A stretch of 43,426 nucleotides of DNA, from IMG/VR virus record IMGVR_UViG_3300019458_000014, positions 1 through 43,426 of that record; one strand, given 5' to 3'. Positions 1 to 43,426 of this stretch are shown piece by piece (within the stretch, counting starts at the first letter, position 1; each line of letters opens with the position of its first letter). The stretch comes from a virus. Made by a program: the position numbers and the translations under genes. Under the pieces are notes generated by a model. It saw only the letters and a list, made by a program, of their open reading frames with translations, was not told the origin of the DNA and ran no database searches.

Positions 1-123
1 GCCGGACCTCGCGGAACACGCCGACCAGTCGCTCAACGTATGCCTCCGGGGTCGGTTCGAGCCCGATCTGTTCGGGCACGCCGTAATCTTGCTTGGGCGT
101 CATCGTGGGCTCCGCTCACCTAC
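1..123. repeat. Terminal direct repeat, copy 1 (identical to 43304..43426): circular-assembly overlap or true DTR
   Basis: Direct comparison: bases 1-123 match 43304-43426 base for base. Confidence 0.95.
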
Positions 124-1921: not shown

Positions 1922-2451
1922 GCGATCGTCTCCGTCACGAACTCGGGCCACTCGACTTTCGCCAGTGCCTCCCGCACGTAGGCCGGCAGGGCGTCCCACA
2001 GCTCATATCGGGCGAGACCCATCCGCCGGAGCAGGTGCGCGTCGGCCTCGTTGTTATCCGCCCCCAAGAAGCCCCACCGGCGGATGGCACAGGCCAGAAC
2101 CTCGTCCTTGCCGGCGTTCCCTTTGCCGGTCGCGAACTTCTTGAGCACGGTCGGCGGGACCTCGGCGTAGGGGATCGCCTGCTCCCAAAGCAGCGTGCGG
2201 ATCACCCCACCGAGCTCCCCCATGAGCTCGCCCTTGAACTTCGAGGCGAACGAGTAGCCCTCGATCACGACCAGCGGACGGCCACCGTCCAGGTCCGAGA
2301 CCGGTGGCGTCTGGCACATCCGACGCATGATCTCGTCGCGGATCGCACAGAGACGCTCAGGCCCTCGGGACCGCACCTTGATCACGGCCGAGCCCGCCTC
2401 GTCGGCGTAGCCGGTCGCGGTCAAGCTCAGGTCGAGGCCGACGACCCTCAT
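1918..2451 (-). CDS. ruvC: RuvC-like Holliday junction resolvase
   Basis: N-terminus MRVVGLDLSLTATGYA matches the RuvC-family catalytic Asp strand. Size 177 aa, with acidic residues downstream. Confidence 0.75.
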   Translation of the reverse strand: MRVVGLDLSLTATGYADEAGSAVIKVRSRGPERLCAIRDEIMRRMCQTPPVSDLDGGRPLVVIEGYSFASKFKGELMGELGGVIRTLLWEQAIPYAEVPPTVLKKFATGKGNAGKDEVLACAIRRWGFLGADNNEADAHLLRRMGLARYELWDALPAYVREALAKVEWPEFVTETIA

Positions 2452-2678
2452 TCCTCCGGCCTCTCCGGCCCCACCTCCACACCCCTATACGAACCGTCGA
2501 CGACCAGATCGCGGTTCACATCGACGAGGGCACGCAAAAGGATCACGAGGGCGTCGGCCCGAACGGGCGTCTCGATGGTCAGCTTGACTGGTCTGCCCAG
2601 CCCGGGCATCCCACCATCACGGACGAGTGGCGTGGTCGTCGATGTGTTCGAGGTTGATCGTGCTTCGTGCTCACTCAT
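2448..2678 (-). CDS. Hypothetical protein, 76 aa
   Basis: MSEHEAR... part of ORF 2448..2975. ATGA overlap with ruvC. 8-nt overlap with the upstream gene. Confidence 0.55.
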   Translation of the reverse strand: MSEHEARSTSNTSTTTPLVRDGGMPGLGRPVKLTIETPVRADALVILLRALVDVNRDLVVDGSYRGVEVGPERPEE

Positions 2679-2946
2679 CGGTGTACGCCGGCAAGCTCTC
2701 CTGCACGACCGGCTCCTCGACCTCATCGACGACGAACGTCTTGAGATCGAGCGCGAGCGAGTGGACGATGTCCGGCTCGCCGCCTTCCTTGGCGAAACTC
2801 TCCTTGCGGCCGACGTACTCGAGCACCACACGGGCGTGCAGCCGCGTCCGCTCCGGGTGGTTGAACCCCGGGGCCTCGAGCACCCCAGCGATGCCGATGC
2901 CGAGGACCTCCTTCGGCGCCTTGGGCACCTTCGCCTTCCTGACCAT
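2671..2946 (-). CDS. Hypothetical protein, 91 aa (Lys-rich N-terminus, acidic C-terminus)
   Basis: ORF track. SD GGAGGAAGGGGG upstream of ATG 2946. Confidence 0.65.
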   Translation of the reverse strand: MVRKAKVPKAPKEVLGIGIAGVLEAPGFNHPERTRLHARVVLEYVGRKESFAKEGGEPDIVHSLALDLKTFVVDEVEEPVVQESLPAYTDE

Positions 2947-2967
2947 GTTTCCCCCTTCCTCCGACCG

Positions 2968-3552
2968 TCAGACACGGCCGGCAGCTTTCTCCTCCTCGAA
3001 CCAACGGCGGTGTCCGACCGTCGCGATCCGTCGAGCGACCTTCCACGCCTCGGCGACCTTCGCCTCGGTCGGATCGCCGTAGCGGGCGCGCGCAGCCCCG
3101 GTCCACAGGTTTCCTCGCGCCGGCGCCAGCGGCCCGGCCATCTCGTCGGCCACCACAGACCGGATCGCCGGGACCGACTGCGAGCCCCACATCGACGCGG
3201 CGATCAGCTCGGCCAGCGGGCGGTCGCCGCCGACGTGCGAAGCGATCTCATCGACGGCCTCCGAGCGCCAGAAGGCCTCACGCTCACCAACCTCGAGCTC
3301 CTTGTCGGTGGCCATCACGTGCGGCGCGTGCGCGTCCGAGTTGTGCCTGCCTCGGTAGGCCATGCGAAAGCGCGGCTTCGACAGCGGCGCCGGGCCGTCG
3401 CTCATCGCTGCCTCGACGCACGCCTTCGCGCAGGGATGACACTCGGCGAGCACCATCTCGGTCGCGAGCTCGTCCACCCACTCGTCCATCGGCTTCTTGC
3501 CGTGGCTCGCGTACATCCGGCGCACGAGCCGCACTGCTTCCTGCTCGGTCAC
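2968..3552 (-). CDS. Hypothetical protein, 194 aa
   Basis: VTEQEAV... part of ORF 2968..3819. GTG 3552 overlaps the upstream stop (GTGA). Confidence 0.6.
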   Translation of the reverse strand: MTEQEAVRLVRRMYASHGKKPMDEWVDELATEMVLAECHPCAKACVEAAMSDGPAPLSKPRFRMAYRGRHNSDAHAPHVMATDKELEVGEREAFWRSEAVDEIASHVGGDRPLAELIAASMWGSQSVPAIRSVVADEMAGPLAPARGNLWTGAARARYGDPTEAKVAEAWKVARRIATVGHRRWFEEEKAAGRV

Positions 3553-4268
3553 GAGCGCCTCGCCTCCTCCACGAGCTCGCGGATCCGACGCCCCGGCTCC
3601 TCGACCTGACGGATCAGCGTCGGCCAGTGCTTGGCCAGCGCCGTTTCGGTGACCACCAGCGAACGGACCCATTGCTCCGAGCTCTCGCGGGCCGCAGCCA
3701 CGACCTCGTGGATCTGCTCCGGTGTGGCTCCTGCCTCGGTCAGGGCTCGCTTGACCTTCCCGCGGAGCGTGCGGCCCAGCTCGGTCGGCGGGCCGTAGAG
3801 GGCGTCGAGCGCGTCCCACATCGGGTCGTGGCGACGTGCCTTGGATGTCGCTGTTTCGCGACCGTCGGAAGATTTATTACCTCCGTAAGGAGGGGTAGTG
3901 GACGGTTCTAGGGACGGTTCGGGTGGTCTGGGGGCCACCCCTGGGGTGGTCTGGGGGCCACCGGTGTCATCAGCGTCATCCCTCGATTGGAGGACAGCGA
4001 GCAGTGTGAGGTTGAGCTGGTAGGTGGTCGCCCGCCGGCCGCCGCCGCGCGTCTGCACGACGATCAGGCCGGCCGCCTCGAGCTCCCGGAGCGTCCGCTG
4101 CACGGCACGCTGACCGATCTGCGCGTACTCCGCGAGGCGGGGGACCGATGGGTAGGAGTTCCGACCGTCGGGGTGGGCGTGATCCGCCAGCCCGATCAGG
4201 ATGAGCTTGGCCGTGGGCGTCACGGGGACGCGAGCTCGGAGCACGGCGCCGACGGCCTCGATGCTCAT
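3549..4268 (-). CDS. Winged-helix DNA-binding protein, replication-organiser/initiator-like, 239 aa
   Basis: N-terminus MSIEAVGAVLR...AKLILIGLADHAHPDGRNSYPSVPRLAEYAQIGQRAVQRTLRELEAAGLIVV resembles HTH_36-type phage/plasmid replication proteins. SD GGAGGG before ATG 4268. Confidence 0.6.
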   Translation of the reverse strand: MSIEAVGAVLRARVPVTPTAKLILIGLADHAHPDGRNSYPSVPRLAEYAQIGQRAVQRTLRELEAAGLIVVQTRGGGRRATTYQLNLTLLAVLQSRDDADDTGGPQTTPGVAPRPPEPSLEPSTTPPYGGNKSSDGRETATSKARRHDPMWDALDALYGPPTELGRTLRGKVKRALTEAGATPEQIHEVVAAARESSEQWVRSLVVTETALAKHWPTLIRQVEEPGRRIRELVEEARRS

Positions 4269-4576
4269 GGTCCCTCCGCCTTCGCATCTACCGAGGGAGC
4301 TGCCGGACCCCCGTCTTGAGGGGGTAGACCGGGGAGCGGCTGTGCGTCGGCCTCGCGGTCGCGGCGCAAGTACTGGGCGGGTATCTGTGAGCCGGGCCGT
4401 CGCCAGACGCCACGCTCGTCCTGGACGAGACCGACGCTCGCCGGATCCCGGCACCAAGGACCGTCGTATCCGGGCTGGAGACGGCCCGGACTGAGATGCC
4501 TGTCAAAGTTGGTCTCCGTGGAGAACACGCGGCCGCACACGCAGAGGCACCGGTCGTTCCCGTGCCCGTCAGACAT
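4265..4576 (-). CDS. Zinc-finger-like protein, 103 aa (CxCxCG..F....FDRH...C.DP)
   Basis: MSDGHGNDRCLCVCGRVFSTETNFDRHL... part of ORF 4265..4669. ATGA overlap downstream. Confidence 0.6.
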   Translation of the reverse strand: MSDGHGNDRCLCVCGRVFSTETNFDRHLSPGRLQPGYDGPWCRDPASVGLVQDERGVWRRPGSQIPAQYLRRDREADAQPLPGLPPQDGGPAAPSVDAKAEGP

Positions 4577-4598
4577 CAGCAGATCACCGCTCCTGAGG

Positions 4599-4775
4599 TC
4601 ATCGCTCACGGTCGTTCCCGCCACCGGACGACCTGAGCATCTCCCGGCGCCAGCCCCAGGCGGCCTCACGTCGGGCCTGCGAGACCCCGATCGTCCGGCC
4701 GACCAGGAACCCGAGGTACAGGCAAAGACCGCCCACGACGAGCATCAGGGTTACGACGGCCTGGGCGGGGCTCAC
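4599..4775 (-). CDS. Small membrane protein, 58 aa, one TM helix
   Basis: VSPAQAVVTLMLVVGGLCLYLGFLVGRTIG... GTG 4775 overlaps the recT stop (GTGA). Confidence 0.55.
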   Translation of the reverse strand: MSPAQAVVTLMLVVGGLCLYLGFLVGRTIGVSQARREAAWGWRREMLRSSGGGNDRER

Positions 4776-5941
4776 TCCGTGAAGCTCCCCGAGCGCGAGT
4801 CGCGCGTGGCCATGCAACCCGCAACCGTGCAGATCTCCATCCAAGCAACGGTCCTCGACGGCCCCCACTCGTGGGGTCCCTCGTGGGCCGATGTGCTGAC
4901 GGCGGCGGTAGACTCAGTGCTCCCCTCCGAGACGGGCTCGCCTTCCCCATACGACTCCGACCCGTTGTCAGAACTCTGGTCTCCCGCTGCCGCCAACCCT
5001 TGCCACTGCCCGATCAGGTGGGCAGCGGTGAACTGATCCAAATCGTTGAAGCTGGCGACGTCCGCTTCGGTGTGCCGGCGCTCGTCATCCCAGCCCAGCT
5101 GCGCCGCCAAGATCGCGAGCGTCTGCTTCTGCCGTTTCGTCGCGGACTTGGCCGACTTGGGGGGCCGGGTGGGGGAGGGCTCCGCCACAGCGTCCACCGC
5201 GCCCGAACTCTCAGCAGGACTGTCGGGCTCAGGCTGCCCCGTCAACAGCTGCGGCGTGCCCTCCGGCGCGCCCTCCCCCACGATCTCGCCCTCGATGATC
5301 TCGCCGGTCGCCGTGTCCACGACCTTGCCATTCGGGGCCACGACGGTCTCACGGGCCTCGGCCAGCTCCTCGGCGGTCGCCTCCGGGTTGAAGTAGGCGT
5401 CGGCCTCCTCTGACTCCATGACCTCGCCCTCGACGTAAACGCGAGCACCAACGACGTCGGGGCAGAACCAGGCGACGCCGTTGGACATCGCTCGGGCGAA
5501 CAGCATGTTGCGAGGGAACGATGTCCAGGGCGTCGGATTGCCGTCCTTGGTGACGAAGCGCAGACCTGCGTTCTTCGCGTCGTCGATCGTGAAGATGCTG
5601 TGGCCGATGTCGACCCACTCGTCATCCTCGTCGGACTTCTCCCAGAACTCCAGCTCGCACCGGTCGGCCGTGATCGCCTGGACCCGGTAGTCGTAGCGGG
5701 GGTGGCTCTTCACCCGCTGGGCCAACAGGTCAGCCGAGAGCTCAACCTTGCCGTCCATCACATGCAGCGACCGCATCGACTCGATCGGCGACAGCCCGAG
5801 CTCACGGCCGGCGAGAACCTTGACGGCAGCTGCCGCACGCGACTTGATATCCGGGAACAGGCCCGAGGCCTCGATCATCTCGCCGACGAGCGCGAGGTTG
5901 TCAAGATCGGGCTTGCGAAGGACGATGGCGGTGTCGCTCAT
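4772..5941 (-). CDS. recT: RecT-like single-strand annealing recombinase with long low-complexity C-terminal extension, 389 aa
   Basis: ELGLSPIESMRSLHVMDGK and PWTSFPRNMLFARAMSNGVAWFCPDV resemble RecT-family conserved blocks. Sits in the early recombination module with ruvC. Confidence 0.7.
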   Translation of the reverse strand: MSDTAIVLRKPDLDNLALVGEMIEASGLFPDIKSRAAAAVKVLAGRELGLSPIESMRSLHVMDGKVELSADLLAQRVKSHPRYDYRVQAITADRCELEFWEKSDEDDEWVDIGHSIFTIDDAKNAGLRFVTKDGNPTPWTSFPRNMLFARAMSNGVAWFCPDVVGARVYVEGEVMESEEADAYFNPEATAEELAEARETVVAPNGKVVDTATGEIIEGEIVGEGAPEGTPQLLTGQPEPDSPAESSGAVDAVAEPSPTRPPKSAKSATKRQKQTLAILAAQLGWDDERRHTEADVASFNDLDQFTAAHLIGQWQGLAAAGDQSSDNGSESYGEGEPVSEGSTESTAAVSTSAHEGPHEWGPSRTVAWMEICTVAGCMATRDSRSGSFTE

Positions 5942-5978
5942 GCCGGGACGGAGACCCTCGAATCGCGGTACTCGTCCA

Positions 5979-6215
5979 TCAGGTCTCCCTTCTCAAGCTC
6001 TTGGCCAAATCACGGATGGCCTCGGTGACTGCGATAAGGCCGTACGCCTGCGAGATGAGCGCCATGCTCTGCTGGGTGATCACGACGTTGACGCCTTGGA
6101 ACCCGAGGACTTCCGCACGATCGCCGGCCTCCATGCAGCTCGCGATGATGCTGCGAGCAGCCATCAGCGCGTCCATGCGCGGCGGTGCGGAAGCTCCGTC
6201 TGGCGGTGTGCTCAC
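5979..6215 (-). CDS. Hypothetical protein, 78 aa
   Basis: C-terminal part of ORF 5979..6572. GTG 6215 overlaps the upstream stop. Confidence 0.5.
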   Translation of the reverse strand: MSTPPDGASAPPRMDALMAARSIIASCMEAGDRAEVLGFQGVNVVITQQSMALISQAYGLIAVTEAIRDLAKSLRRET

Positions 6216-6523
6216 GTCTGCCAGCCCTCCCCGAGGGCGTTGCAGGCCGGACATTCCCAGCGATCTTCGAGCGGATGGGCCGGGCACCGGTCGGTGTCCG
6301 GTAGACCGGACACGCTGATCGGGATCACGTCGCTCCCGCGATCGAGCGTCGGCACCAGCGAGAGCCGGACGTGGCTGACGGGGTGCGCGGCGATCGCGGC
6401 CGCAAGCCGCATGTCCACCTTCTGGCCGACGCGTGGGCATCCCCGCCTGTGGAACCAGCCTCCCCCGGTCGGGCTCACCATCCACTTCGGATAGCAGTGC
6501 GGGCACCGCGGCGGAGCCGTCAA
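6212..6523 (-). CDS. Hypothetical zinc-ribbon-like protein, 103 aa (CPHC ... CPAC)
   Basis: ORF track. TTG start overlapping the upstream stop (TTGA). Confidence 0.55.
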   Translation of the reverse strand: MTAPPRCPHCYPKWMVSPTGGGWFHRRGCPRVGQKVDMRLAAAIAAHPVSHVRLSLVPTLDRGSDVIPISVSGLPDTDRCPAHPLEDRWECPACNALGEGWQT

Positions 6524-6744
6524 AGCGCCGCCTCCCAGGCGTCGGTGACCTCGCGGTGACGCTTGGGGTCAAGCGGCTGCTCGAGGCCTGTCGCCTCGAT
6601 GAAGCGCCGCTCGAGGTACTCCCTCTCCTCGGCGTTCAGAGGCGGCTCGGACTGGTCAAGCGACTCGCGCTCGGTGTCGTAGTCGGATGGGTACAGGCCC
6701 TCGAGGTATTCGCGCTCCGTGAGCTCGCCCTCGTGGGTGGTCAT
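6520..6744 (-). CDS. Hypothetical acidic protein, 74 aa
   Basis: MTTHEGELTEREYLEG... ATGA overlap with 6741..6956. Confidence 0.6.
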   Translation of the reverse strand: MTTHEGELTEREYLEGLYPSDYDTERESLDQSEPPLNAEEREYLERRFIEATGLEQPLDPKRHREVTDAWEAAL

Positions 6745-6956
6745 GGCTCGTCCCACCCGTTGATCGAGAGCACGAGATCGAGGGCACGCCAAGGGGCCAC
6801 CCGCATCAGCTCCCTCGCCCAGGCAAGCTCTCGGGCGTGCGAGAGGTTGGCCATCACCCAGAGCGTCCGCTCCACGGGATCGTCGTCGTTCTCGCCCATC
6901 AGGTGCAGGACCGCGCGGTCACCAAGCTCATCGAGAAGCCGGGACCAGCGACTCAC
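6741..6956 (-). CDS. Hypothetical protein, 71 aa
   Basis: ORF track. GTGA overlap with the cro-like gene. Confidence 0.6.
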   Translation of the reverse strand: MSRWSRLLDELGDRAVLHLMGENDDDPVERTLWVMANLSHARELAWARELMRVAPWRALDLVLSINGWDEP

Positions 6957-7156
6957 GCAGCCGGCTCCTCGAATAGCTCGCGCACGGACACGTCGAGAGC
7001 GGCCGCGATCTTCGCGAGGGTGTCGGTGTGTGCGGGATTGCCCCCCTCGATCTTCTGCAGGGTCCGAAGGGCGATCCCCGCGCGCTCCGCGAGAGTCTGC
7101 TGGGTGAGTGATCCGCGGAGCTCCCGGATCCGAAGCCGCGGTGACGTGCCTTCCAC
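6953..7156 (-). CDS. Cro-like XRE-family HTH regulator, 67 aa
   Basis: LRELRGSLTQQTLAERAGIALRTLQKIEGG is a classical XRE HTH. Divergent from the repressor. Confidence 0.85.
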   Translation of the reverse strand: MEGTSPRLRIRELRGSLTQQTLAERAGIALRTLQKIEGGNPAHTDTLAKIAAALDVSVRELFEEPAA

Positions 7157-7163
7157 GGCGCGT

Positions 7164-7191
7164 AGTTTACAGCGTGCTTCTGACCATGCAA
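7164..7191 (-). promoter_or_regulatory. Candidate early-left promoter (TTGCAT-16 nt-TAAACT), GTG start 7 nt after -10: leaderless
   Basis: Hexamers read on the minus strand. No SD between -10 and GTG 7156. Confidence 0.5.
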
Positions 7192-7225
7192 GCCTCTGGG
7201 CCGAATCCGGTAGGAAAAAGGTCGC

Positions 7226-7255
7226 TTGACGTGCAGCGAAGTGCGCGTAGAGAAT
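7226..7255 (+). promoter_or_regulatory. Candidate repressor promoter (TTGACG-18 nt-GAGAAT), ATG 5 nt after -10: leaderless
   Basis: Hexamers read directly. The imperfect palindrome CGCTTGACGTGCAGCG (7223-7238) overlaps -35. No SD. Confidence 0.5.
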
Positions 7256-7260
7256 GCCGC

Positions 7261-7575
7261 ATGATGGCCCGCGATGTGATCGACCTCGAGTGGATCAGCC
7301 AGGACTGGGGCAGGCGACTTCGCGTGGCGCGCAAGGAGCGCGGCCTGACCCAGCTCCAGGCCTGCGTGGAGCTCGCCGTGACGCTTCGGACCTACCAGAA
7401 GTGGGAGACCGGCACTCTGCCCGATGGGGAGAACGCCGCCACGGTGGAGATCCGGTGGGGGGTTCGAATCATCCCTCCGGGAGACTCTAGGAAGCACGCT
7501 ACGGCCAGGAAGCTCAGTGCGGCCGGACAGCCGACGTCGGCCGAGCCCTCCGGCGTAGCCCTGGTCGCTGGGTGA
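7261..7575 (+). CDS. XRE-family HTH repressor (CI-like), 104 aa
   Basis: WGRRLRVARKERGLTQLQACVELAVTLRTYQKWETG HTH. Stop overlaps the integrase GTG (GTGA). Confidence 0.8.
   Translation: MMARDVIDLEWISQDWGRRLRVARKERGLTQLQACVELAVTLRTYQKWETGTLPDGENAATVEIRWGVRIIPPGDSRKHATARKLSAAGQPTSAEPSGVALVAG
7458..7482 (+). other. tRNA 3'-half mimic (T-loop GGTTCGAATC + acceptor-like strand) inside the repressor ORF: candidate attP core
   Basis: GGGGGTTCGAATCATCCCTCCGGGA read directly. No matching 5' tRNA half upstream, so it is not a tRNA gene. Confidence 0.5.
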
Positions 7576-8471
7576 GCGTCCCCGCCTCGTCGACGGTCAC
7601 GACCGAACGGCCGTTGGCCCGGAGTCCTACAGCAGCCGATACCTACAACGTGGGCGACTCGTTTGCGCTGCTCGCGGCGTGGGTCGAGTGGATGCAGGCG
7701 CGTGACCTCGCCCCCACCACGATCCGCAGCTATGAGAACGGCGTGACCGCGCTCGCCCGCCACCACCGCTGGAAGGTCTCGCTCGTCGAGATGGACGAGC
7801 AGGCAATCGTTACCTTCCTCGCCTCGATCGGCGACCGCTCTCCCACGAAGCAGCTCCACGCGAAGGGCATCCGCTCGTTCTACCAGTTCTGTGTGCGCCG
7901 CCAAGTGCTGCTGTTCGACCCAACGACCGACTGCAGCCCGCGACGGAGATGGCCCGGTGAGCCCGTCCGCTTCGAGCTGGATGAGATGACTCGGCTGCTG
8001 ATCGCAGCGGCGTGGCGGGAGGAGCGACGAGCCTGGGCGTTGCTCGCGTGTTTCGCCCTCGGCGCCCGCCGGACCGAGTTCTGTCTCCTGCCCCTGGCTG
8101 ACATCGACTGGGGGAAGCGCCTGGTCGTCTTCCGGCACACGAAGGGCAACCGGCCTCGGACGGTGGACATGGGCCCGTGGGCGTTCGAGGCGTGCTCCGA
8201 GCTACTCCGCTGGTCCGACGGCGAGCGGCTACTCCCGATCGCGCCCAACTGGTTCAACCGGTGGATGGCGGACGCTGGCAGCGACGCTGGCATCCCTCGA
8301 GCCCGCCTGCACACCCTGCGGGCGACCTTCGCCTCGATCCTCCTCGATGACGGCCAGCCTCCGCAGGTCGTCCAGCGACTCCTCGGCCACCAGTCGCTCG
8401 CGACCACCACCCGGTACGCCGCGATCGGGAGAGACCGACCGACGGCCAAGGCCGTCCAGGTGCTCGGCTAG
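7572..8471 (+). CDS. int: Tyrosine integrase, XerC/D-like, 299 aa
   Basis: SAM-like N-domain (APTTIRSYENGVTAL). Catalytic ARRTEF, HTLRATFAS, LLGHQSLATTTRY. Confidence 0.9.
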   Translation: MSVPASSTVTTERPLARSPTAADTYNVGDSFALLAAWVEWMQARDLAPTTIRSYENGVTALARHHRWKVSLVEMDEQAIVTFLASIGDRSPTKQLHAKGIRSFYQFCVRRQVLLFDPTTDCSPRRRWPGEPVRFELDEMTRLLIAAAWREERRAWALLACFALGARRTEFCLLPLADIDWGKRLVVFRHTKGNRPRTVDMGPWAFEACSELLRWSDGERLLPIAPNWFNRWMADAGSDAGIPRARLHTLRATFASILLDDGQPPQVVQRLLGHQSLATTTRYAAIGRDRPTAKAVQVLG

Positions 8472-9052
8472 AGGGCCAACCCGATGAAGTGCATCTCGAA
8501 GTAGGTGGCGTTCGATGCACCATCGGCGTTGCGGTCGGTCACGGTCGATTGAGCGAAGGCCTCCAAGTAGTCACCCTCGGCAAGCTGCAAGCGCTTCACG
8601 ACCTCAACGGATTCGGGATCGCCGATCCCCGCACCGTTAGCGATTGCGACCTGATTACCACCCGTGTCGGATCCAGCGGCGTTCTGACGGATCTGAGTCT
8701 GGACGACACCGCTGCCGTCGGCACCAGCGGTGAACCGCACGGCCAGAGTGACCTCATAGAACCCGGCAAGGCCGAGTCCACTCGGCACCACGAGTCGGGA
8801 ATTGTTTGTCGACGTGTCGTGGAAGCCGTCGGTGTCTTCGCCGACACTCTCGGAGGTCCAGGCGAGCAGTCCCCACGTATCGACGGTGAGGTTCTGATCC
8901 GTCCCAGCGCGATGGGTCGAGACCCCGTGGTACCTCGCCAGGAAGTCGACCTGCGCCTTGAGGTAGTTCAGGTTGTCCCGGATGTGCAGGTTGAGCTCAG
9001 GGTCGGGAACGACCTCGAGGGTCCGCCACGTCCGCGGCTCGGTCCAGCCCGT
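8468..9052 (-). CDS. Tail fibre / receptor-binding-like protein with C1q/TNF-like C-terminus, about 194 aa; no canonical start (ACG 9052?)
   Basis: The frame is open and clearly coding from 9055 (TGWTEPRTWRTLEVVPDPELNLHIRDNLNYL...), but the first ATG/GTG/TTG is at 8791. SD GAGGGGAG lies 7 nt before ACG 9052. Confidence 0.55.
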   Translation of the reverse strand, partial: TGWTEPRTWRTLEVVPDPELNLHIRDNLNYLKAQVDFLARYHGVSTHRAGTDQNLTVDTWGLLAWTSESVGEDTDGFHDTSTNNSRLVVPSGLGLAGFYEVTLAVRFTAGADGSGVVQTQIRQNAAGSDTGGNQVAIANGAGIGDPESVEVVKRLQLAEGDYLEAFAQSTVTDRNADGASNATYFEMHFIGLAL

Positions 9053-13049: not shown

Positions 13050-14200
13050 GCCACGCCCCGGTTGACCCGGCGCCGGCGATGATCCTCAGCGGCAAGCAAG
13101 GATTGCTGATGCCGTGACCGGGCATCGGTGAAGCTCTGCCACTCGAACACAGCGGCGCGCGCCCTGGCACCCGGGACGATCGAGGCGTGCAGCGTCCCAG
13201 CGTCGGGGGCCACGCCGCCGGACTCCTCGAGCAGCTGCAGCCGCGCACAGACGCCGAGCTCCGTGAGGGCCCGGAGCTCCTCGGTGAGGTTGCCGAGGGT
13301 CGGGCGCGCTCGGTAGGCGAGGCGGATCGCCGACGCGTCGACCGTGCGAGGCACGATGATCGCGCCGTTCGGGAAGTTGGCCTCATCGGCGAGTACCGGC
13401 GGCAGGTAGGAAGCGTCGAGGCCGTAGATCTCGCCGGCCACGACCTGGTAGGCGAGGACGACCTCCTCGATGTCCGGGACCGTCGAGACGTAGTAGGTCG
13501 TGGACGCCTGATACGCGAGGGCGATCTCGCCGGGCACCCAGACGTGCGGCCAGAGCTCGAGGTCCACGATCTGTCGGGCCGCGTCGAGGATCTCGCGGCG
13601 GCGGAGTCGCGCCTCCACGAGCACCGCGGTTCCCTGGACGTGGGATCGCCCAGCCGTGCCATCTTGGCCTCGCAAGATAGGCACCGTTCCAGCGGTCGCA
13701 TCGCCGGGGGCCGATGAGACCGCGAGCTCGTCGGTTCCATCATCGAACTCGAGCCACAGTCCCGAGTGCGAGATCTTGCTCGCGTCACCGAGCGGGCTCG
13801 TGTTGATGACGAGGGCGCCTGCGCTCAGCGGGTTGTCGTTGACGTAGAACCGATGTGGGCGGTCCTTCATGAGTCCTCGCACCGACCGCACGAGGTCTTG
13901 ACGGGGCTCGGCGCGCACCGTGAAGTAGGCGAACTCGGTGAGCGCCGGCACCCCGGTCGTTACCCACTTCGCCTGCCAGTCGCCGATGGCGGCGGCGGCG
14001 GCCAGCGCATGGTCGTATCGGAACCGCCCGACGGCGACCTTGGTGATGTCCGCGGGCGTCGGCCAGTTCCTGGTCGTGACGTTGCCGGCCGGATCCGTGA
14101 TCGTCAGGACGATGGTGGTCGGATCAGAGAGCGCGCCCGCGGCCTGGAACGAGGCCTCGAGCCGAACAGTGTCGCCCTGGTCGTAGACCCGGTCAGGCAT
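13046..14200 (-). CDS. Structural protein with Ig-like N-terminal domain, 384 aa
   Basis: ORF track. GDTVRLEASFQ..DPTTIVLTITDPAGNVTT is an Ig-like pattern. Confidence 0.55.
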   Translation of the reverse strand: MPDRVYDQGDTVRLEASFQAAGALSDPTTIVLTITDPAGNVTTRNWPTPADITKVAVGRFRYDHALAAAAAIGDWQAKWVTTGVPALTEFAYFTVRAEPRQDLVRSVRGLMKDRPHRFYVNDNPLSAGALVINTSPLGDASKISHSGLWLEFDDGTDELAVSSAPGDATAGTVPILRGQDGTAGRSHVQGTAVLVEARLRRREILDAARQIVDLELWPHVWVPGEIALAYQASTTYYVSTVPDIEEVVLAYQVVAGEIYGLDASYLPPVLADEANFPNGAIIVPRTVDASAIRLAYRARPTLGNLTEELRALTELGVCARLQLLEESGGVAPDAGTLHASIVPGARARAAVFEWQSFTDARSRHQQSLLAAEDHRRRRVNRGVA

Positions 14201-14873
14201 CCGGGCTCCCCTCGCCCACGGGCCGGGTGGTCACGGAGCCCGCGCCCGCAGGCACGGCCACGACGCTTGCGACACTCGGGTCCCTGGTGCCCACGTTCGA
14301 TTCATACAGGGGTCGGGCAAGCAGGCTGACGATGCCCGGGGCGGGGATGACGACCCCAACGATGATGGTCCCGTTGGCGGCGAACACGGCCTCGGCGAAG
14401 ATGGCCCCACGAGCCGTCACGAGCAGGAACGGAGACGCACCGGTGTGGGCCTCCGCGAAGATGGCGGTGGCCGCGACTCGAATCGCCTGAATCTGTGCGC
14501 CGAGGTCCGCCCCAGCGTGGAAGGCTGCCGCACCACGGACCTGCACGAGGGGAGCACCGGTGAGGCTACCCTCCGCGAAGATGGCCCCCGCGGCTGTTAC
14601 TAGGAACACGAGCCTCCCCGAGAGCACGGCCTCGGCCTCAACCGCTGCGGCCGCCGGGATGATCTTGAAGCTCGAGGCGGAGAGCGAGGCCTCCGCCTGG
14701 ATCGCGCTAGCAGCAACCGCGATGTTGAATGGAGCACCCGAGAGCACGGCCTCGGCGAAGAAGGCAGCCTCAGCAGTCACGATCGGTACCCCGAGCGTCC
14801 AGACGAAACGCTTCGGATAGTGGCTCCTCGGCGGCTGGACCCAGCGACGGCGGAACGGTCCGCCGGTCAGCAC
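14193..14873 (-). CDS. Repeat-containing structural protein, 226 aa (7 x 20-aa Ala-rich repeats)
   Basis: ORF track. Repeat unit approximately (V/A)xAxxAIFAEAxLxGAPxxx. Confidence 0.6.
   Translation of the reverse strand: MLTGGPFRRRWVQPPRSHYPKRFVWTLGVPIVTAEAAFFAEAVLSGAPFNIAVAASAIQAEASLSASSFKIIPAAAAVEAEAVLSGRLVFLVTAAGAIFAEGSLTGAPLVQVRGAAAFHAGADLGAQIQAIRVAATAIFAEAHTGASPFLLVTARGAIFAEAVFAANGTIIVGVVIPAPGIVSLLARPLYESNVGTRDPSVASVVAVPAGAGSVTTRPVGEGSPDA
14389..14808 (-). repeat. Seven in-frame tandem 60-bp repeats inside 14193..14873
   Basis: gcctc(g/c)gcgaagatggc-type unit starts at 14389, 14449, 14509 (diverged), 14569, 14629, 14689 and 14749. Confidence 0.8.
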
Positions 14874-21956: not shown

Positions 21957-22349
21957 CTATCTCCGCCCCATCAGTCGCGCGATCGTAGCGGCGACCTCGG
22001 CGCCCTTGTCACGCCAGTACTGCGTGCGTTCGACGCCCTGACTTCCGAGCAGCGAGTCGTAGATCTCGAAGTCCGACAAGTGCTGGACGTTCTTCCACCA
22101 GCCCTTCGGCGGGAGCCGCCCCCAGACCTCGTAGTAGATGCGCTCCGCCCGCGGCTTGTCGGGATCCTCGGGCTGCGACGCTGGGCCCTGCCCGGCCGCA
22201 ATGATGGCGGCGACATCTTCGGGAGTCAGCTCGAACGCAGGCGGCTGCGTCCCGCTCGTGCCCTCGTCCCCCGGCGTACCAGCCGGGGGCATGCCGGTCG
22301 TCCCGACGCCGTGTCCAGTCGGTCCAAGCTCCTCTGGCCTCGTGCTCAC
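21957..22349 (-). CDS. Hypothetical virion-module protein, 130 aa
   Basis: ORF track. GTGA overlap with the giant gene. Shares the TGHGVGTTGM decapeptide with it. Confidence 0.65.
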   Translation of the reverse strand: MSTRPEELGPTGHGVGTTGMPPAGTPGDEGTSGTQPPAFELTPEDVAAIIAAGQGPASQPEDPDKPRAERIYYEVWGRLPPKGWWKNVQHLSDFEIYDSLLGSQGVERTQYWRDKGAEVAATIARLMGRR

Positions 22350-25300
22350 TCAGGCACCCCCCCGAGGCGATACCAGGTGTTCGGGATGAAGATCTCGAGC
22401 GCGGAGTCCGGCCCGTTCTCCTTGTCGAGCCAATCCCACTCGGCGCGGAACACCGGGGAGGCCTCCCTCAGCTGGTTCACGTAGCTCCTGACCGACTCGA
22501 TCATGGTGCGGTAGGCGATCGCCTTGGTCGCGGTGTCCTCGAGCCCGTGCAGGTCCGCCCGCTCCACCACGCCTTGAACCTGCCGCACAGCGTCAAGCAG
22601 TCCGTCCCAGTACGGGCGCGCCTCCTCGGCTCCGATGAACCCCCACGTGTCGTCGCGTCGGTTGAGGACCTGCTCGAAGCTCCACCCCCAGGTGTTGGCG
22701 TGGGCGACCTGCGCGGCGAACACCGGATCCGCCGCGGTCTGCTGGCGTATCCACGAGTCGAGCGCCGCATAGGCCCTCGTCGAGGAGAAGGCGGGGTCGG
22801 TCGCCTCCTGCTCAGCAATCGCGAGCCGGACCTGCTCGTACATGCCCCAGAGCTGCTCGGCGCCGGCCGAGGTCTGCTCCCCGAGGACGGTCTCGTGGTC
22901 GAACCGGCTGTTGAACTGGTAGGAGCGTGCCACGAGCGAGAGCAGGTAGCCCTCCCTCTCGGACGGTGACCAGGTTTCCCACCGAAGGATCATCGGGTTC
23001 TGCTTGGTCGAGAAGGCGTCATAGGACCCGTTCACCCAGGCACGAAGAGCTGCGTAGGCAGCGTTCCGCTCCTCCTCGGGACCCGAGAGGTCAATCGCGG
23101 CGCGAAGCTCCTCCATCTCGGACCACCACGGGTTGATCTTCTCGTCGTAGGCGGCCTCCGGGATCGCGTCGAGCAGCCGGTCACCGACCGTTCTGACGCC
23201 AGCTTTGAGCGCCCGGTCGAAGAACAGGCGATAGGCCTGCTCGCCCTGAGGGAAAGCGAGTCCGAGGATCTTGAGGCCCTTCTCCCAGTCGGCCACGATG
23301 CCCAGGCGCTCCGCCGTCTTGGACTCGAGCGTTCGGAGGTTCGCCTCCGACAGTCGATCACGGGTGAGGTCGAACAGGGGTAGGAAGCCCCGAAGCCACT
23401 GACCGACCTCGGTCTTGGAGAAGAGCTTGTCCTTCGCAAGCTCGCGGGCGATGGCCATGACCCGACTCTCCACCTGTTCGGACGAGTGGGAGTCGAAATC
23501 GGTCCGCCACGCGGGGTACAGGTCGCGGATCTCCTTGAGCGCGGCGTCGTGGTCGTTCTTGAGCTCGTCGTAGCCGGGATCGCCCTCCCCGATCCGCTGC
23601 TGGGCCAGGGCATCCACGAGCGCCCGATACCGCGCGTCCTCGGTGAAGAACGCGTCCCAGCCGGACTGCCGCTCGCCCTCGGCGATGAACTCCTCTGGCG
23701 AGCGAACGTGTCGCAGCCCCGCGGCGATCTGCGAGAAGAAGATGCCCGGGTCGAACTTGCCCTCCTCGTACAGCTCACGCGGGATGATCGCCCACACCCA
23801 TTCCGGGTGAAGCTGGGCGAACTCGCGGGCGCCCTTGGTCGACAGGAGCTCGGCGACCGCGCGGTTGGCCGGGATCGGGACCGGCGATGCGAGGGGATCG
23901 TTCGGATCGTCCGCGTCCCAGAAGGTTCGGGCGATCGTCATCAGCCGGAGATCCTCGTGCGTGGCCATGAATCGAGTGCGGCCCTCGAGCGGGCCGTGCA
24001 GCTCGATCAGCGATCGGTACTCGCGCTCGAGGTCGACCGTCGGGAACTCGACCTTGGGCGCTGCGGGGAACACCCACGCGAAGAACATCCGCGCCGCTGC
24101 GAGCTTCCGGGACTGCCTGCGAGCGAGCTCGGGGTTCGGCTCAAGGCCCATCGCCTCCTGGAGCTGCAGGAAGTGGGTCGCGTTGAAATCAGCCGTATTC
24201 CGCGCGGTGTCCGGGAAGGCCGTCTCGATCCCGTAGCGGAGCCAGGCCGGGAGCAGGGCCTCTGGCTGGACGACATTGATGTCTCCGAACTGGAAGAGCC
24301 ACGACTCCACGCGTGCTTTCAGCCGAGCGTTCACGTTCGAGGAGGCGAGCCAGTTCTGCATGGCCATCTGGAACGGCGGCGCGAGCGAGGGCACCGGGAT
24401 CGGGAACTCTGTGCCGGCGAAACCCCCGAGGTTCACCGGGAAGGCACCTTGGGCGAACAGGTTGAAGCTCGACAGGTTGGCCATGAGCTCCCACCCGCCG
24501 CCGGCACCGGGCTTGAGCCGTCCCCCGGTGAACGCCGCGAGGAGCGGAGCGGCGCCGGCCCACCACGAGAGCGGGATCACGAGCTCCCCGGTCTCCGGGT
24601 CGCGCTTGACGAACCCCGACTGCATGGCGTTCCGCCCGAGGCGGAGCGCGTGCCCGAGGACCTCGGGGCGCTGACGGATGATCCGCGACCACACGAGCGG
24701 GAACTCGAGGAAGGGCTGCACGAATACCAGGCCGAAGCGGGTCATCTCCTCGAACCGACCGGTCCGCGAGAAGTCGAACATGATGCGCCGGACCTGCGAG
24801 ATGCCCTGCTGCCGTGCGGTCTCGCGGAAGCCGGGTAGCCCCCGCTGGATCTGCTCGGCTGACCACCCCATCTCGCGCGCGTTCTCCACGAGCGAGCGGT
24901 AGGTGACGTCGTACCAGTGCTTGAAGTAGGGCTGGCGCGAAAGCGTATTCGTCGGGGTCTGCAGGATCAGCCGGCCCATGATGTCTCGGGCTCGCTTGAA
25001 CGGTCCAACCTGCCCCGTGAAGAACTCGGCCATCTCGGGGCCGTGCACGAAGAGCGGCTTTTCGCCCTGCGGGATCGCTCTCAGCACGGAGATGTCGAGC
25101 TGGTTCACCGCGGCGGCCGAGGCGAGCTCGGAATGCCCGGCCGTGATGTCCTCGGCGTAGGCGGCCGCCCGGCGGACCTCGAACTCGAGCAGGTCGTCGG
25201 TGACCTCCTCGGCACCGTGCAGCAGGCCCTTCGCGTAGGACGGGCCCTCCCCGCGCGTGTCCTTGAGCCAGCGCATGATGTCGTCGACGATGTCCTCGGT

Positions 25301-28300
25301 GTCCCTACCTCGCCCCACGCTCCCCAGGATGCGATTGCCCATCGGATCCGTCCCGTATTGATGAACCAGCACGTGCCACCAGTAATCGTCGAAGTTGTCC
25401 GCGTCACGACCGATCGCGTCCCAGCGGCCTGGCCGGAGCTGCCCGAACACACGGCGAAGAGCGTCGTCGGATTGGGTGAGCACGTGTGAGGCGGCAGCCC
25501 CGGCGTTCACGAGCTGCTCGTTCGGGATGCCCGGCAGCGCGAACGTCATGATGCCCTCGTCGATCCGCCGCTGGGCCTCGAGCGCCTGGGTCGCGTTCTT
25601 GGCCGCGTCGCCTCGCACCCGGAGCTTTCCGGCGTCGATGCCGATCGCCGCGAGCTGACGCGGGTACGTGGTGGCGATCGTGAGCGCAGCCTGGCGCATC
25701 TGGTCGTCCCACGCCCCGCCCGTGAGGATCACGTCGGCGAGGGCGCCACCCCGGTCTTGGTGGTCCGGGTTGAAGCCGATGTCGTCGATGATCCCCCGGT
25801 GGGTCCGGTCGTTCAGGAACAAGATCGCGTCCTCGAGCTCCTGACCGCGCTGACCTGGCGCCTCCGGGAGCTTGAAGCCGACGGGGAGCCGCTGCGGCTC
25901 GTTCATCCCGAGGCGAGCGAGCAGGGGCCCCGACCGCTTGCCGGTCTGGAGCCGGCGCATGAGCCCGACGGTCGCGAGGAACCGGCTCTGCTCCTCGATC
26001 CCGACCACGCGCAGGATGTATGCCGGGCGGAGCACCGCGAGCGGCTTCCACACGGCGAGGAAGGCCTGCGAGATGAGCAGGTCGGCCGCCCGGTCCACAC
26101 CACGGCGGATCGGCAGGATCGCCTTGGCGGAGCGGGCCGAGGCGATCGCCTCCGTGAGTCGTGCGACCTCGGCGTCGTTGTTCGCCGCCTTCGCCGCCTT
26201 GAGCGCGCGTTCGAGCTCCGGGACGTTGCCGAGGTTCCCGAGGGTCACGCGCTGAGCCCGCGTCCACTTGCGGAGTGTTCCCATGATCTCGGCGATCCCG
26301 AGCTCGTAGAGCACCGGGTCAAGCATCTCGTAGGTGTTGTCGAACTGCGACCGCAGGAACGGCTGGAACTCGCTCGTAACGCTCGTGATGCCCGCCTCGG
26401 CATCCCGGATGGCCTGCTCGAGCGCCTCGCGCTCTTCACGACCGGCGCCCCGAAGCGCCCGCCGGAGGCCCCGGATCCTGATGCGCTCGGCCTCGGTGCC
26501 CGCAAAGGCTGCGAAGGTCTGGCGCCTCCCGCCCGTCCCGCCACCATAGATCTTCTGTAGGTGCTGGACGATGCGAGCCGAGAGCGCCGCGTCGATGCCG
26601 TACTTGGCGTTCTTGCGCTCCCGGATGCGGGCGTTCCACTCGCCCACGACCCGCTTGAAGTCGGTCTCTCTGGTCGGGTTGCGTCGGTCGACGGCGGCCG
26701 CGAACTGCGTCTTGGCTCGAGCGATCTCATCCGGCGAGGCGACCTTGGAGCGGATCAGGGCGCGCTCGAAGTCGCGAACGACATCGGCATCTTCGATCTC
26801 GAACACGATCCGCGATCCGTAGCGACGCGGGTTCGTCTGGGGAAGCGCCCGGATGGTCCGGCCGATGTCGGTGCCGGCGAACTCGGTCGTCCGCAGCCAG
26901 TTGTTGAACCGGGCAAGCGAGGCACCGGTCAGGCGCCCGCCGGCGATATGGGGGATCTCGAGCATCCTGACGACCCCCCCGGCGAAATCAGCCGCCGCGT
27001 CGTCGAGCACCTGCAACGCCTGGCCAGCCTCTCTGGTCCGGCGCTGCGCCGCGGCCGTCGCCGAGGCCGGCACGCCCATCGTGGTCGCGAACGTCCGGTG
27101 AAGCGCCTCGGTCCGCTGGACGCGAAGCACACGGTCAAGCTCCAGGATGTCCTCGGCGAAGGTCCCCGCCTTGGGCCGCACCCCCATCGCCGTTGCGAGG
27201 AGACCACGGATCGCGGCGTCGCGCTGCTCACCCGACAGGCCGAGCTTCCGGGCCGTCCGGTTGAACTCCCAGACCCGGCTCGCCGTAGCGGCGTCGATGC
27301 CCGACCCGACACCGAACCATCGCCGGTAGTTGTTGACAGCGCGGTCGAACATCGCTTCCGGCCGCCGCGCACGGTCGGCCTCGCGACGGAGATACTGCGC
27401 GATCGTCACGTCTTTCAGATCGCCTATCCGGCGAGCCGGCTGATCCAAGAACTGGTTGACGCGCGAGATGTACTCAGCACTCGAGGCCGTGCCGACTCGG
27501 CCCGAGATCAGATGTGAGGCCTTGACGCCCGAGCGCCAGCGCAAGCCCCACATGAGCGGGTCGACCTTGCCGCCAAGGATCAGGTCGGCCACGGCCGTCG
27601 CCCACATCGGCACACCTGCGTCCTCGTGGAGCTCCGTGTACACGTTGGTCCGGCCCAAGATGATGTCCCGGGAGTCGCGAAGGGCCTCCGCGATCCTCGG
27701 CAGGTCCGGCTCGTCCGTGAGGTGATACGACGGGTCAACCAGAGCCCGCGTGTGCCGCCCGATGTCCCCGAACGCGTCGACGACCTCCCCGAACACCACC
27801 CGCTCGATCGCCCCGACCCCCCGCGAAAGCAAGTCCAACGTCGTCCCGACCGATCGACCGACGAACGTGTCAGTGAACGGAAGCTCTGCTCGCTCGGCGA
27901 TCTCCTTGCCCGCCTTGATGTAGTCGGACTGGGCGTCCTCGAGGACCGAGAGCCAGTCGCCAGGAGATGCCAACCCTGAGAGCACGGTCTCCGCGAACCG
28001 CTGTTGGGCCTCGATGCCTCGGATCTGCGACGGGTCGACGTAGCTCGTCTGCTGTGCGCTCTCGAGGGCAAGCTGGGCCGGAGATATCTCCTCCGTCCGA
28101 GGCTTCACCGCCTGCAGCTCACCGGTCCCGGCGAACACGGGTCGGGAGATGGTCTCCTCGTGCATCTTCAAGACCTCGCCGAGCCGAGGGTCCAGGGCGG
28201 TCGCGACGTCCCCGAGCGTGCGGACCTCTCGGCCCCGGAGCGCGGCCTGGTGAGCGGCGGCGACCTGCAACTGCGGGGTGAGCCCGGGGAGCCTCGCCGT

Positions 28301-38937: not shown

Positions 38938-39042
38938 TCACGCAGGGTCTCCCGCGATTCGAACGCTTCCAGCGTACAGCATCCTGCACGTCCCGGCTCC
39001 TCGGCACTCATCGCAGCGCGTCTCGAGAAGCGGTACGCTCAT
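38938..39042 (-). CDS. Micro-protein, 34 aa, with DnaJ-type CxxCxGxG motif
   Basis: MSVPLLETRCDECRGAGTCRMLYAGSVRIAGDPA*. ATGA overlap with the upstream gene. Confidence 0.4.
   Translation of the reverse strand: MSVPLLETRCDECRGAGTCRMLYAGSVRIAGDPA
38971..38990. promoter_or_regulatory. Operator-like 20-mer AGCGTACAGCATCCTGCACG, copy B
   Basis: 19 of 20 nt identical to 38133-38152. 65 nt upstream of ATG 38906. Confidence 0.45.
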
Positions 39043-40208: not shown

Positions 40209-40508
40209 ATGCGATCGCTGCTCTACCCAGAGAAGCGCCGGCTGCGCGACGCTTACAAGCGCCGTGTGCGTGCAGAGGCCGACGTCGACCGGCAACTGCT
40301 CGAGTACGCGACCGACGGAGTGCCCTACTCCGAGCTCGCGGCCGTGCTCGAGATCACCAAGTCGGCCGTCGGGCAGCGACTCGCCGTGATCCGGGGTCGG
40401 GCGGTCGGTGGCGCCGCCGACCAGGGCTCCGCATCTCATCCGCAGGGTTCGCCCGCGGGCGGGGCCCGGCCCGACCCCGACCTGTCCGAGCGGCGCGGCC
40501 CTAGCTAG
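40209..40508 (+). CDS. Small HTH protein, sigma-70 region-4 / LuxR-like, 99 aa
   Basis: VPYSELAAVLEITKSAVGQRLAVIRGR HTH pattern. Confidence 0.65.
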   Translation: MRSLLYPEKRRLRDAYKRRVRAEADVDRQLLEYATDGVPYSELAAVLEITKSAVGQRLAVIRGRAVGGAADQGSASHPQGSPAGGARPDPDLSERRGPS

Positions 40509-40511
40509 GCG

Positions 40512-40880
40512 ATGGCACCGCGGCACCCCTCGGGCCCTCTCGTGCTGGCGGCTCTTTCCGTCGAGCTTGGGCGGGCAGTCCCGACGACCACCGTCGCCCG
40601 GCGGGTCGGTCACGCCGGCAGCCAATATGAGATCCGGCTCGTCCGTGAGGTCCTGTACGCCCTCTACATGGCCGGGCTCTGTGAGAAGCCCATGGGGCGC
40701 AGGCTCCGGTGGACGCTGACGACTCTTGGATGGCGCGCCGCCAGCACCGACGGAATGGACCACTCGGTCGCCTACTGGCAGCGGAAGTCACGTGATGCGT
40801 ATCACGTGATCCGCACCCTCGAGACGTACATCCGCACCCTCGAGGACGCGCTGTACCCGATGCGCCAAGTCGAGGCCTGA
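40512..40880 (+). CDS. Winged-helix DNA-binding protein, 122 aa
   Basis: LAALSVELGRAVPTTTVARRVG...LVREVLYALYMAGLCEKP...RWTLTTLG is a wHTH pattern. Confidence 0.6.
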   Translation: MAPRHPSGPLVLAALSVELGRAVPTTTVARRVGHAGSQYEIRLVREVLYALYMAGLCEKPMGRRLRWTLTTLGWRAASTDGMDHSVAYWQRKSRDAYHVIRTLETYIRTLEDALYPMRQVEA

Positions 40881-40881
40881 G

Positions 40882-43406: not shown

Positions 43407-43426
43407 CGTGGGCTCCGCTCACCTAC
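43304..43426. repeat. Terminal direct repeat, copy 2 (identical to 1..123)
   Basis: Direct comparison. Confidence 0.95.

Follow-up and report, generated by a model that had tools for sequence, protein, structure and literature searches.

The window analysed here is the whole of the virus record IMGVR_UViG_3300019458_000014 in IMG/VR, a stretch of 43,426 nt, and the element in question is a candidate phage attachment site (attP) inside a repressor gene, rep. At this locus a cro-like gene diverges from rep, and rep runs directly into int, a gene for a tyrosine integrase (Table 1). Adjacent and co-oriented rep and int, a divergent cro and a control region of 100–300 bp are the hallmarks of cassettes for integration-dependent immunity (IDI), in which the attachment core lies inside the rep open reading frame (ORF) and the prophage makes a shorter repressor. 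This gene arrangement was found here, with a control region of 104 bp, and again in ten relatives. Both the ORF geometry and the Pfam matches agree with the original prediction, made from the sequence alone, of a cro-like helix-turn-helix (HTH) gene divergent from an HTH repressor. The XerC/D-type integrase was likewise confirmed, together with its overlap with the rep stop codon (GTGA at 7572–7575) and the CTAG that it shares with a convergent ORF. That ORF had been called a fibre gene, a label that could not be upheld, as it has no Pfam or PHROG match. The sigma-70-like sequence in the control region may be the rep promoter; because it ends 6 nt 5′ of the rep ATG, the rep mRNA may be leaderless. 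ARAGORN, run over the whole window, reported zero tRNA genes.

Table 1. Features of the cro/rep/int locus and of the sites discussed in the text (positions in the window)
Feature	Position	Strand	Evidence
cro-like HTH_3 gene, 67 aa	6953..7156	-	Pfam HTH_3 E 1.4e-9; diverges from rep
Control region between cro-like and rep ORFs, 104 bp	7157..7260	.	ORF boundaries
Sigma-70-like promoter candidate for rep, TTGACG-18-GAGAAT	7226..7255	+	Consensus scan, 1 site against 0.2 expected
rep, viral form, 104 aa, HTH at about residues 17-59	7261..7575	+	Pfam HTH_3 E 8.5e-6, HTH_31 E 6.8e-6; HMMER homologues
String originally read as a tRNA 3′-end mimic	7458..7482	+	GGGGGTTCGAATCATCCCTCCGGGA; judged a by-product of codons WGVRIIPPG
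Predicted attP core, 11-6-11, rep codons 78-86	7492..7519	+	Motif kept in 10 relatives; equivalent of the L105 junction
tRNA-Phe(GAA) nt 1-16 mimic, GGCCAGGAAGCTCAGT against GGCCAGGTAGCTCAGT, 15/16	7503..7518	+	Sequence match
Rep C-terminal tail, residues 84-104, KLSAAGQPTSAEPSGVALVAG, putative degron	7510..7572	+	Recurrent hydrophobic/Ala-Gly tails in relatives
int, XerC/D-type tyrosine integrase, 299 aa	7572..8471	+	Pfam Phage_integrase PF00589 E 2e-19; PHROG integrase
Convergent ORF, 107 aa, no assigned family	8468..8791	-	ORF call; CTAG 8468-8471 common with int stop

Int shows the two-domain architecture of tyrosine recombinases: Pfam assigned an N-terminal SAM-like domain (PF13495) and the catalytic domain only, with no arm-binding domain. 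In an alignment with 19 homologues, residues R166, K191, H247, R250, H273 and Y282 were invariant, so the catalytic hexad is intact. About 30 Int relatives were collected, all of them metagenomic, and scans of IMG/VR and of JGI metagenomes with Int gave few close relatives, every one in the attP form. Int is only 25–35% identical to the matching integrases of Mycobacterium smegmatis and M. abscessus phages. For the C-terminal third of Int (residues 164–289), the identity is 35% with integrases from some 20 M. smegmatis phages, such as MichelleMyBell and Panchino, which belong to Cluster N. Cluster N is named among the IDI clusters (PMC9262239).

The predicted attP core lies in the 3′ part of rep and consists of a left arm, AAGCACGCTAC (7492–7502), an overlap, GGCCAG (7503–7508), and a right arm, GAAGCTCAGTG (7509–7519). 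From the overlap onwards the core mimics the 5′ end of tRNA-Phe(GAA): the overlap equals tRNA nucleotides 1–6, the right arm copies nucleotides 7–17, and the five left-arm nucleotides next to the overlap, GCTAC, are nucleotides 7–11 (GTAGC) in reverse complement. Exact identity to the tRNA is short, with 7 nt, one mismatch and then 8 nt. Within the window, 7503–7518 was the sole match to the tRNA-Phe 16-mer at ≤1 mismatch, and none of 100 shuffled sequences gave any. In IMG/VR, GGCCAGGTAGCTCAGT proved to be the exact 5′ end of a tRNA-Phe(GAA) in 58 of 66 matches, actinobacterial Glu-Asp-Phe tRNA clusters among them; a match without a tRNA call (L077) was discarded as a chance match within a capsid-like ORF. 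The lone mismatch, T8 to A, changes an in-frame TAG to AAG (Lys84), so that the phage reads ACG GCC AGG AAG where the tRNA version would read ACG GCC AGG TAG. The rare Arg codon AGG, which makes up 5% of the Arg codons in the long genes of the phage, is kept at the site. The possibility that GGCCAGG comes from a tRNA 3′ acceptor strand in reverse complement was also considered and rejected, as the next bases fit a D-arm (AGCTCAGT) and not a T-arm.

The genomic contexts of ten relatives (L005, L006, L008, L009, L010, L011, L023, L098, L099 and L104), whose Int proteins are 33–80% identical to that of the window, were read. The results showed that all ten carry the cro(−)/rep(+)/int(+) module, and that in all ten a block xxTAC-N6-G(T/A)A lies within the rep tail, flanked by 11-nt inverted repeats. 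The arms match at 10 of 11 positions in L009 and L098, at nine in L104 and at eight in L011 and L023, against a chance expectation of about three. Inverted 11-nt arms about 6 nt are the anatomy of a simple tyrosine-recombinase core, which fits an Int without an arm-binding domain. L005, with an Int 80% identical, matches the tRNA-Phe 5′ end at 18 of 19 positions. Its rep N-terminal domain is unrelated to that of the window, has no HTH_3 match and faces a MerR-type divergent partner; homology between the two begins directly 3′ of 7458–7482, at CTCTAGGAAGCACGCTACGGCCAGGAAGCTCAGT. Outside the shared block, the N-terminal domains of rep show no relationship in several relatives, and in L023 and L104 the block is conserved as DNA but read in another frame. 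Retention of the block in two frames and of the rare AGG indicates that the constraint acts on the DNA and not on the peptide; an interpretation of the block as a peptide motif (TAR-K/Y-L) or an RNA stem was dropped in view of the two frames and the recombinase-type inverted arms.

The tRNA nucleotides 8–10 correspond to one codon in nine of the 11 attP-form genomes (the window and eight of the ten relatives), and in seven of these nine that codon is one substitution away from TAG (AAG, TAC or TAT). Read from the sequences, the viral forms appear to avoid the tRNA stop codon. Other members point to other tRNAs: the L098 overlap, GCGGGTG, gave tRNA-Gly 5′ ends in 94 of 122 matches and the L006 overlap, GCTGGAG, gave tRNA-Thr in 36 of 75, in patterns made by grafting TAGCTCA onto the phage 7-mer, which tests only whether such acceptor stems exist. 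The GGGGAGG overlap of L008 and L009 was ambiguous, with no single tRNA isotype. In L099 (1376–1401) the left side of the core, GCATCC-GGCCAG, resembles the host sequence 5′ of actinobacterial tRNA-Phe (..CTTCC-GGCCAG) and not the phage TAC arm; the crossover register of L099 may be different.

An integrated cassette homologous to that of the window was found through Rep. A word-based homologue search found Rep alone; a full HMMER search gave single-domain homologues, of which P0067, P0069, P0071 and P0114 carry the same kind of tail, while P0068 is a tailless protein of 79 aa, 46% identical to the window Rep. P0068 occurs on three NCBI metagenome assemblies (the L105 prophage: GCA_046128415.1, GCA_046128375.1 and GCA_046128595.1) and on one Logan contig; these four assemblies are independent and identical in sequence over 890–960 nt. 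A cro-like ORF 5′ of P0068 is 45% identical to its counterpart in the window. The P0068 ORF ends ...TCA ACG CCC TCG TAG, and ARAGORN called a tRNA-Arg(CCT) at 1563–1637 of L105 in which the G of ACG is nucleotide 1 and the TAG is nucleotides 8–10. The codons ACG CCC TCG TAG stand in the same frame as ACG GCC AGG AAG of the window. Host-type genes lie 3′ in three of the four assemblies, with RibD_C in all three NCBI contigs, and the longest of these also carries DUF4386 and a flavin monooxygenase 3′ of the junction. As judged from its sequence, the L105 junction is the phage–host junction (attR) that integration through the core would produce, in the same reading frame as in the window. A prophage Rep cut short at such a junction was found for this homologous cassette only.

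Taken together, attP probably lies inside rep and overlaps a host tRNA in an IDI-type switch, with a tRNA 5′ end as its target. We put the probability of this model, and of the window being a circularly assembled, temperate siphovirus-like genome with a three-gene cro/rep/int switch of the IDI kind, at about 65%. The cassette logic of the original prediction, with attP in rep and truncation of the repressor on integration, is thereby retained, backed by an integrated homologue with a rep of 79 codons fused to a tRNA; its 3′-end element is not, since the core at 7503–7518 mimics nucleotides 1–16 of the tRNA-Phe 5′ end.

According to this model, Int, with core-binding and catalytic domains only, would recombine the 28-bp Xer-like core at 7492–7519 with the 5′ end of tRNA-Phe, and strand exchange would occur within GGCCAG. 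Because the base at tRNA position 8 is A in the phage, the crossover must fall to the left of that position if the tRNA is to be functional. The predicted attR, ...AAGCACGCTAC GGCCAG GTAGCTCAGT(T/C)GGTA..., would join rep to tRNA-Phe, so that rep reads ...ACG GCC AGG TAG and uses the tRNA's own U8-A9-G10 as its stop codon. The product would be a Rep of 83 aa ending ...SRKHATAR, which keeps the HTH and loses the tail ending VALVAG; the predicted loss is thus 21 residues and not the 30–40 first proposed. The intact tRNA body would come to lie directly behind the rep promoter and be transcribed from it. At the predicted attL, the tRNA-Asp–tRNA-Phe spacer followed by GGCCAG GAAGCTCAGTGCGGCCGGAC... 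would be joined to the rep tail and int, leaving the tail codons and int with neither the rep promoter nor translational coupling to rep through the GTGA overlap. We infer that the phage uses tRNA-Phe, that the crossover falls in GGCCAG and that immunity depends on integration. The 21-aa tail may be a degron by analogy with known IDI repressors, which carry ssrA-like C-terminal degradation tags (PMC3694055, PMC9262239). The Rep tails of relatives are of a like character and end in VALAAV, LAAAMG, LALIGA, LALTGA, LVIASG, GVAVA, DLALA or VPALA.

Several observations weigh against this model. The VALVAG end of the Rep tail is not the canonical -LAA, and Int ends in AVQVLG; the C-termini of its 19 homologues are variable, and few end in -PPAA or -PRVA. 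The arms of the window's own core are poor inverted repeats (5/11), the right arm of L099 (AGATAC) is atypical, and the frame of L023 and L104 gives no immediate tRNA stop. The identical Int protein was found on a 43,444-nt ENA metagenome contig and on a 24-kb contig of an NCBI metagenome-assembled genome (MAG), and rep/int is uninterrupted in both, so that both assemblies holding the phage represent the attP form. No attL, attR or empty attB of this phage was found in protein look-ups or in its two assemblies, genome DNA not having been scanned for tRNA-Phe junctions, and exact look-ups of the 83-aa Rep (with three alternative starts) and of the predicted truncated Reps of the ten relatives found none among about 15 billion proteins. 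Nor was the Int that goes with the integrated L105 cassette recovered: the attR-side 24-mer of the L105 prophage had no match in IMG/VR, so that its viral form was not obtained either. A second tyrosine-recombinase-like ORF, at 40882–41436, might serve another site. The original prediction had looked to integrated copies with a truncated rep; no integrated copy of this phage came to light, and a shortened rep at a tRNA junction was seen in the homologous cassette.

We consider it unlikely that Int integrates at the tRNA-Phe 5′ end via 7492–7519 while immunity does not depend on integration, the core lying in rep because of genome compactness, the tail being no degron and both forms of Rep being functional. 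The non-canonical tail, the lack of an obvious tag on Int and the frames of L023 and L104, which would escape truncation by the tRNA's TAG, would fit such a phage, and some IDI-like prophages are without ssrA-like tags (PMC8092301). However, rep N-terminal domains that are unrelated to one another all bear an extension of 20–30 aa ending in a short hydrophobic or Ala-Gly run, and in most members the frame is such that the tRNA's TAG is the very next codon. The rep-int operon, the divergent cro and an Int without an arm-binding domain are also the IDI design, and no Xis/HTH_17-type (excisionase) Pfam match was found among the L003 gene calls, which cover about half of the genome and do not thereby exclude a recombination directionality factor (RDF). 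It is quite improbable that the block is no attachment site at all but a protease-recognition peptide (TAR-K/Y-L) or a regulatory RNA or DNA element for int, with attP elsewhere or no integration. The weak symmetry of the window's arms and the want of a junction of this phage in its two assemblies and the protein look-ups favour that reading, and the second PF00589 ORF would allow an attP near 40.2–41.4 kb or in the gene-poor stretch at 35.6–37.1 kb. Against it, the motif occurs in two reading frames and hence is no peptide, it fits the tRNA 5′ ends of three isotypes in different members, and the homologous L105 cassette is joined to a tRNA exactly at the motif. In addition, the second recombinase is without a core-binding domain, and the position of the 35.6–37.1 kb stretch, upstream of the packaging genes, is one at which a cos/pac region would be expected.

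The attachment site first proposed was a different string, GGGGGTTCGAATCATCCCTCCGGGA, which is present exactly at 7458–7482, 21 nt ahead of the start of the tRNA-Phe mimic, and which was held to share a core with a host tRNA 3′ end, as in phage BPs. It has the canonical G-TTCGAAT-C loop signature followed by 5+7+1 nt, tRNA 3′ ends are the sites of canonical IDI (PMC9262239), and 18 nt of it, GTTCGAATCATCCCTCCG, recur as the T-arm/acceptor of a single tRNA-Met, carried by a low-GC viral contig of 129.6 kb. Nevertheless, a search for the exact 20-mer TTCGAATCATCCCTCCGGGA in 185,579 species genomes, a comparison of the kind that the prediction called for, gave two matches, about the chance expectation, both in coding DNA and neither in a tRNA. 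The implied T-stem (GGGGG/CATCC) holds a G-A mismatch, a tRNA beginning CCCGGAG would be unusual, and an Rfam scan of the whole window gave no tRNA-like match at E≤5 and nothing relevant. The 9-mer core GTTCGAATC is not significantly rare: it occurs twice in the window against 0.31 expected, and two copies were reached in 3 of 100 shuffles. The second copy, at 38956–38964 (−), is not set in a tRNA and was attributed to chance. At the place of the string, homologous repressors have KVALVG or WGIRVPL, encoded by different DNA; the string is missing from the rep genes of L010 and P0068, and the integrated relative keeps the homologous codons (WGIRV) 8 codons 5′ of its junction. The string is best read as chance or as a by-product of encoding WGVRIIPPG. 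The 3′-end version is thus already largely refuted, and we regard it as very improbable.

Outside the cassette, the first and last 123 nt of the window (1–123 and 43304–43426) are an exact direct repeat, which indicates a circular or terminally redundant assembly; the window is accordingly a circularly assembled genome of 43.3 kb, with a unit length of 43,303 nt. The host is likely a member of the Actinomycetota. The GC content of the window is 63–71%, and a WhiB-family ORF at 41881–42462 (−) (193 aa, PF02467 in the precomputed L003 calls) hints at an actinobacterial host. Most genes lie on the minus strand. The early genes, the WhiB-like gene among them, come after the cro-like gene. The large terminase lies at 31545–33755 and capsid-type Pfam matches (Phage_capsid_3/4) just past 18.4 kb, which places the structural module from about 35.6 kb down to 8.5 kb. 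A DNA search with positions 6900–8500 against 50,697 GenBank phage records gave no match, and tblastn of Rep gave weak HTH matches only.

The structural module also contains a tape-measure-sized ORF of 2189 aa (22346–28915, −) with internal repeats of about 2-kb period (23135, 25145 and 27146). Three direct repeats with a 180-nt period and 66–80% identity, at 14382–14782 within the minus-strand structural ORF 14193–14873, are probably a repeated domain of a tail or fibre protein. Near the start of the window, a 26-nt motif (minus-strand reading ATGACCGATAGACGGGAGGAAGGG) occurs three times, at 288–313, 468–493 and 656–681, with spacings of 180 and 188 nt, and points to a tandem array of three small paralogous genes whose products start MTDRREEG.

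Some further observations concern the integrase and its relatives. The Int of relatives begins about 26 codons later and their rep-int spacers are 5–97 nt, which makes the start of int uncertain. A perfect 10-bp palindrome, AACGGCCGTT, lies at 7606–7615, just past the rep stop, where the codons ERPL of the annotated Int N-terminus stand; L005 has the identical palindrome, and related GACCGTTC-type motifs are found in the rep-int spacers of L006 and L008. The palindrome may be a regulatory or second binding site, with the true int start downstream at GTG 7650. The second recombinase belongs to a plus-strand cassette at 40209–41436 amid minus-strand early genes, made up of a 99-aa HTH-like ORF (40209–40508), a 122-aa ORF (40512–40880) and the 184-aa recombinase ORF (40882–41436), which has the catalytic domain only (PF00589 E 6.7e-21; PHROG integrase) and no core-binding domain. 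Dimer resolution, inversion and a second att system are candidate roles for it. In L011 (Int identity 51%), a region directly 3′ of int (1981–6888) carries a tRNA-Leu, a TROVE (Ro60-like) gene, an RlaP-family gene and tRNAs Met, Ser and Ser. An Actinomycetota MAG (GCA_035573935.1; L102/L103) has an Int relative of 41% identity beside an AlpA-like HTH gene, a Terminase_7 small subunit and a 482-aa capsid protein, with no rep upstream of int and a 317-nt GC-rich spacer before it. Together they form a small element that may be satellite-like, with an integrase drawn from the same family.

To our knowledge, IDI is the simplest known lysis–lysogeny switch, and nearly all characterised examples come from phages of Mycobacterium and its close relatives, where the sites are always tRNA 3′ ends or, in a few cases, lie outside tRNA genes. 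A form of it beyond cultured hosts, running into a tRNA 5′ end, would make the design more widespread and more plastic than described. We suggest tentatively, as possible rather than probable, that an IDI-switch family in uncultivated actinobacterial phages combines a small Xer-like integrase with a half-site equal to the near-universal G7-U8-A9-G10-C11-U12-C13-A14-G15 and an overlap equal to nucleotides 1–6 of the acceptor stem. If so, the retargeting rule would be a 6-bp overlap copying acceptor nucleotides 1–6 beside a conserved D-arm half-site, and six altered bases would suffice to direct a phage to a different tRNA; versions for Phe, Arg, Gly and Thr were seen. The tRNA's invariant UAG (nucleotides 8–10) would be co-opted as the stop codon that removes the repressor degron, and transcription of an essential tRNA, often present in one copy, would come to depend on the promoter of the repressor, making the survival of the host contingent on lysogeny being maintained. 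A cut by RNase P where the tRNA begins might, in addition, leave the rep mRNA without a stop codon, with a possible interplay of RNase P and tmRNA. Small arm-less integrases whose 28-bp sites could be matched to a tRNA gene of choice would be of practical use as integration tools in Actinomycetota.

The predicted core resembles the simple sites of the Xer/dif system, in which a two-domain XerC/D-like recombinase acts on an 11-6-11 core with inverted arms; here, however, the phage supplies its own recombinase, which would act on a tRNA 5′ end instead of dif. In Mx8 and SSV1, attP lies within a phage gene that is split by integration, but the gene split here would be the repressor and not the integrase.

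BPs, Brujita and Charlie (Clusters G, I1/P and N) and related Gordonia and M. abscessus prophages share a cassette of about 1.5–2 kb with int, rep and a divergent cro (Broussard et al. 2013; PMC3694055, PMC9262239, PMC8092301). The window resembles BPs-type IDI in its co-oriented, contiguous rep and int, a predicted core inside the rep ORF and a host tRNA as the probable target, in the shorter prophage Rep expected from a stop made at the phage–host junction, in the short hydrophobic/Ala-rich C-terminus of the viral Rep and in an Int without an arm-binding domain. The canonical BPs-type core is about 35 bp long and carries the tRNA 3′ end (PMC9262239). No core of that kind, from which the tRNA is rebuilt, was found here; the conserved core instead matches a tRNA 5′ end at 15 of 16 positions. 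Unlike in BPs-type IDI, rep would be co-directional with the tRNA and read into it, with the conserved U8-A9-G10 of the tRNA as its stop, and the tRNA would not be rebuilt from phage DNA but would lose its own upstream region and land behind the rep promoter. The degradation tags here are non-canonical and putative, and the Int identity of 25–35% also sets the two apart.

Integration at tRNA 5′ ends is known but rare, and its combination with a core inside rep has not been reported. MabA1 prophages at attB-5 use a tRNA 5′ end, and transcription of the tRNA-Met from the prophage has been argued; attB-5 is not among the listed IDI sites, however, and a rep–tRNA ORF fusion is not described (PMC8092301). 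The pelagiphage HTVC105P also uses a tRNA 5′ end, but it and its relatives are SAR11 podoviruses in which the core lies outside the repressor gene with no link to immunity (bioRxiv 10.1101/410191). In the tRNA-dependent lysogeny of Fionnbharth and Cluster L (PMC10865867), the common core with the host tRNA is likewise short (8–10 bp) and targeting by the tyrosine integrase is likewise atypical. In those phages a phage-encoded tRNA takes the place of the host tRNA, which is destroyed, whereas here the tRNA body would stay intact and the window carries no tRNA of its own.

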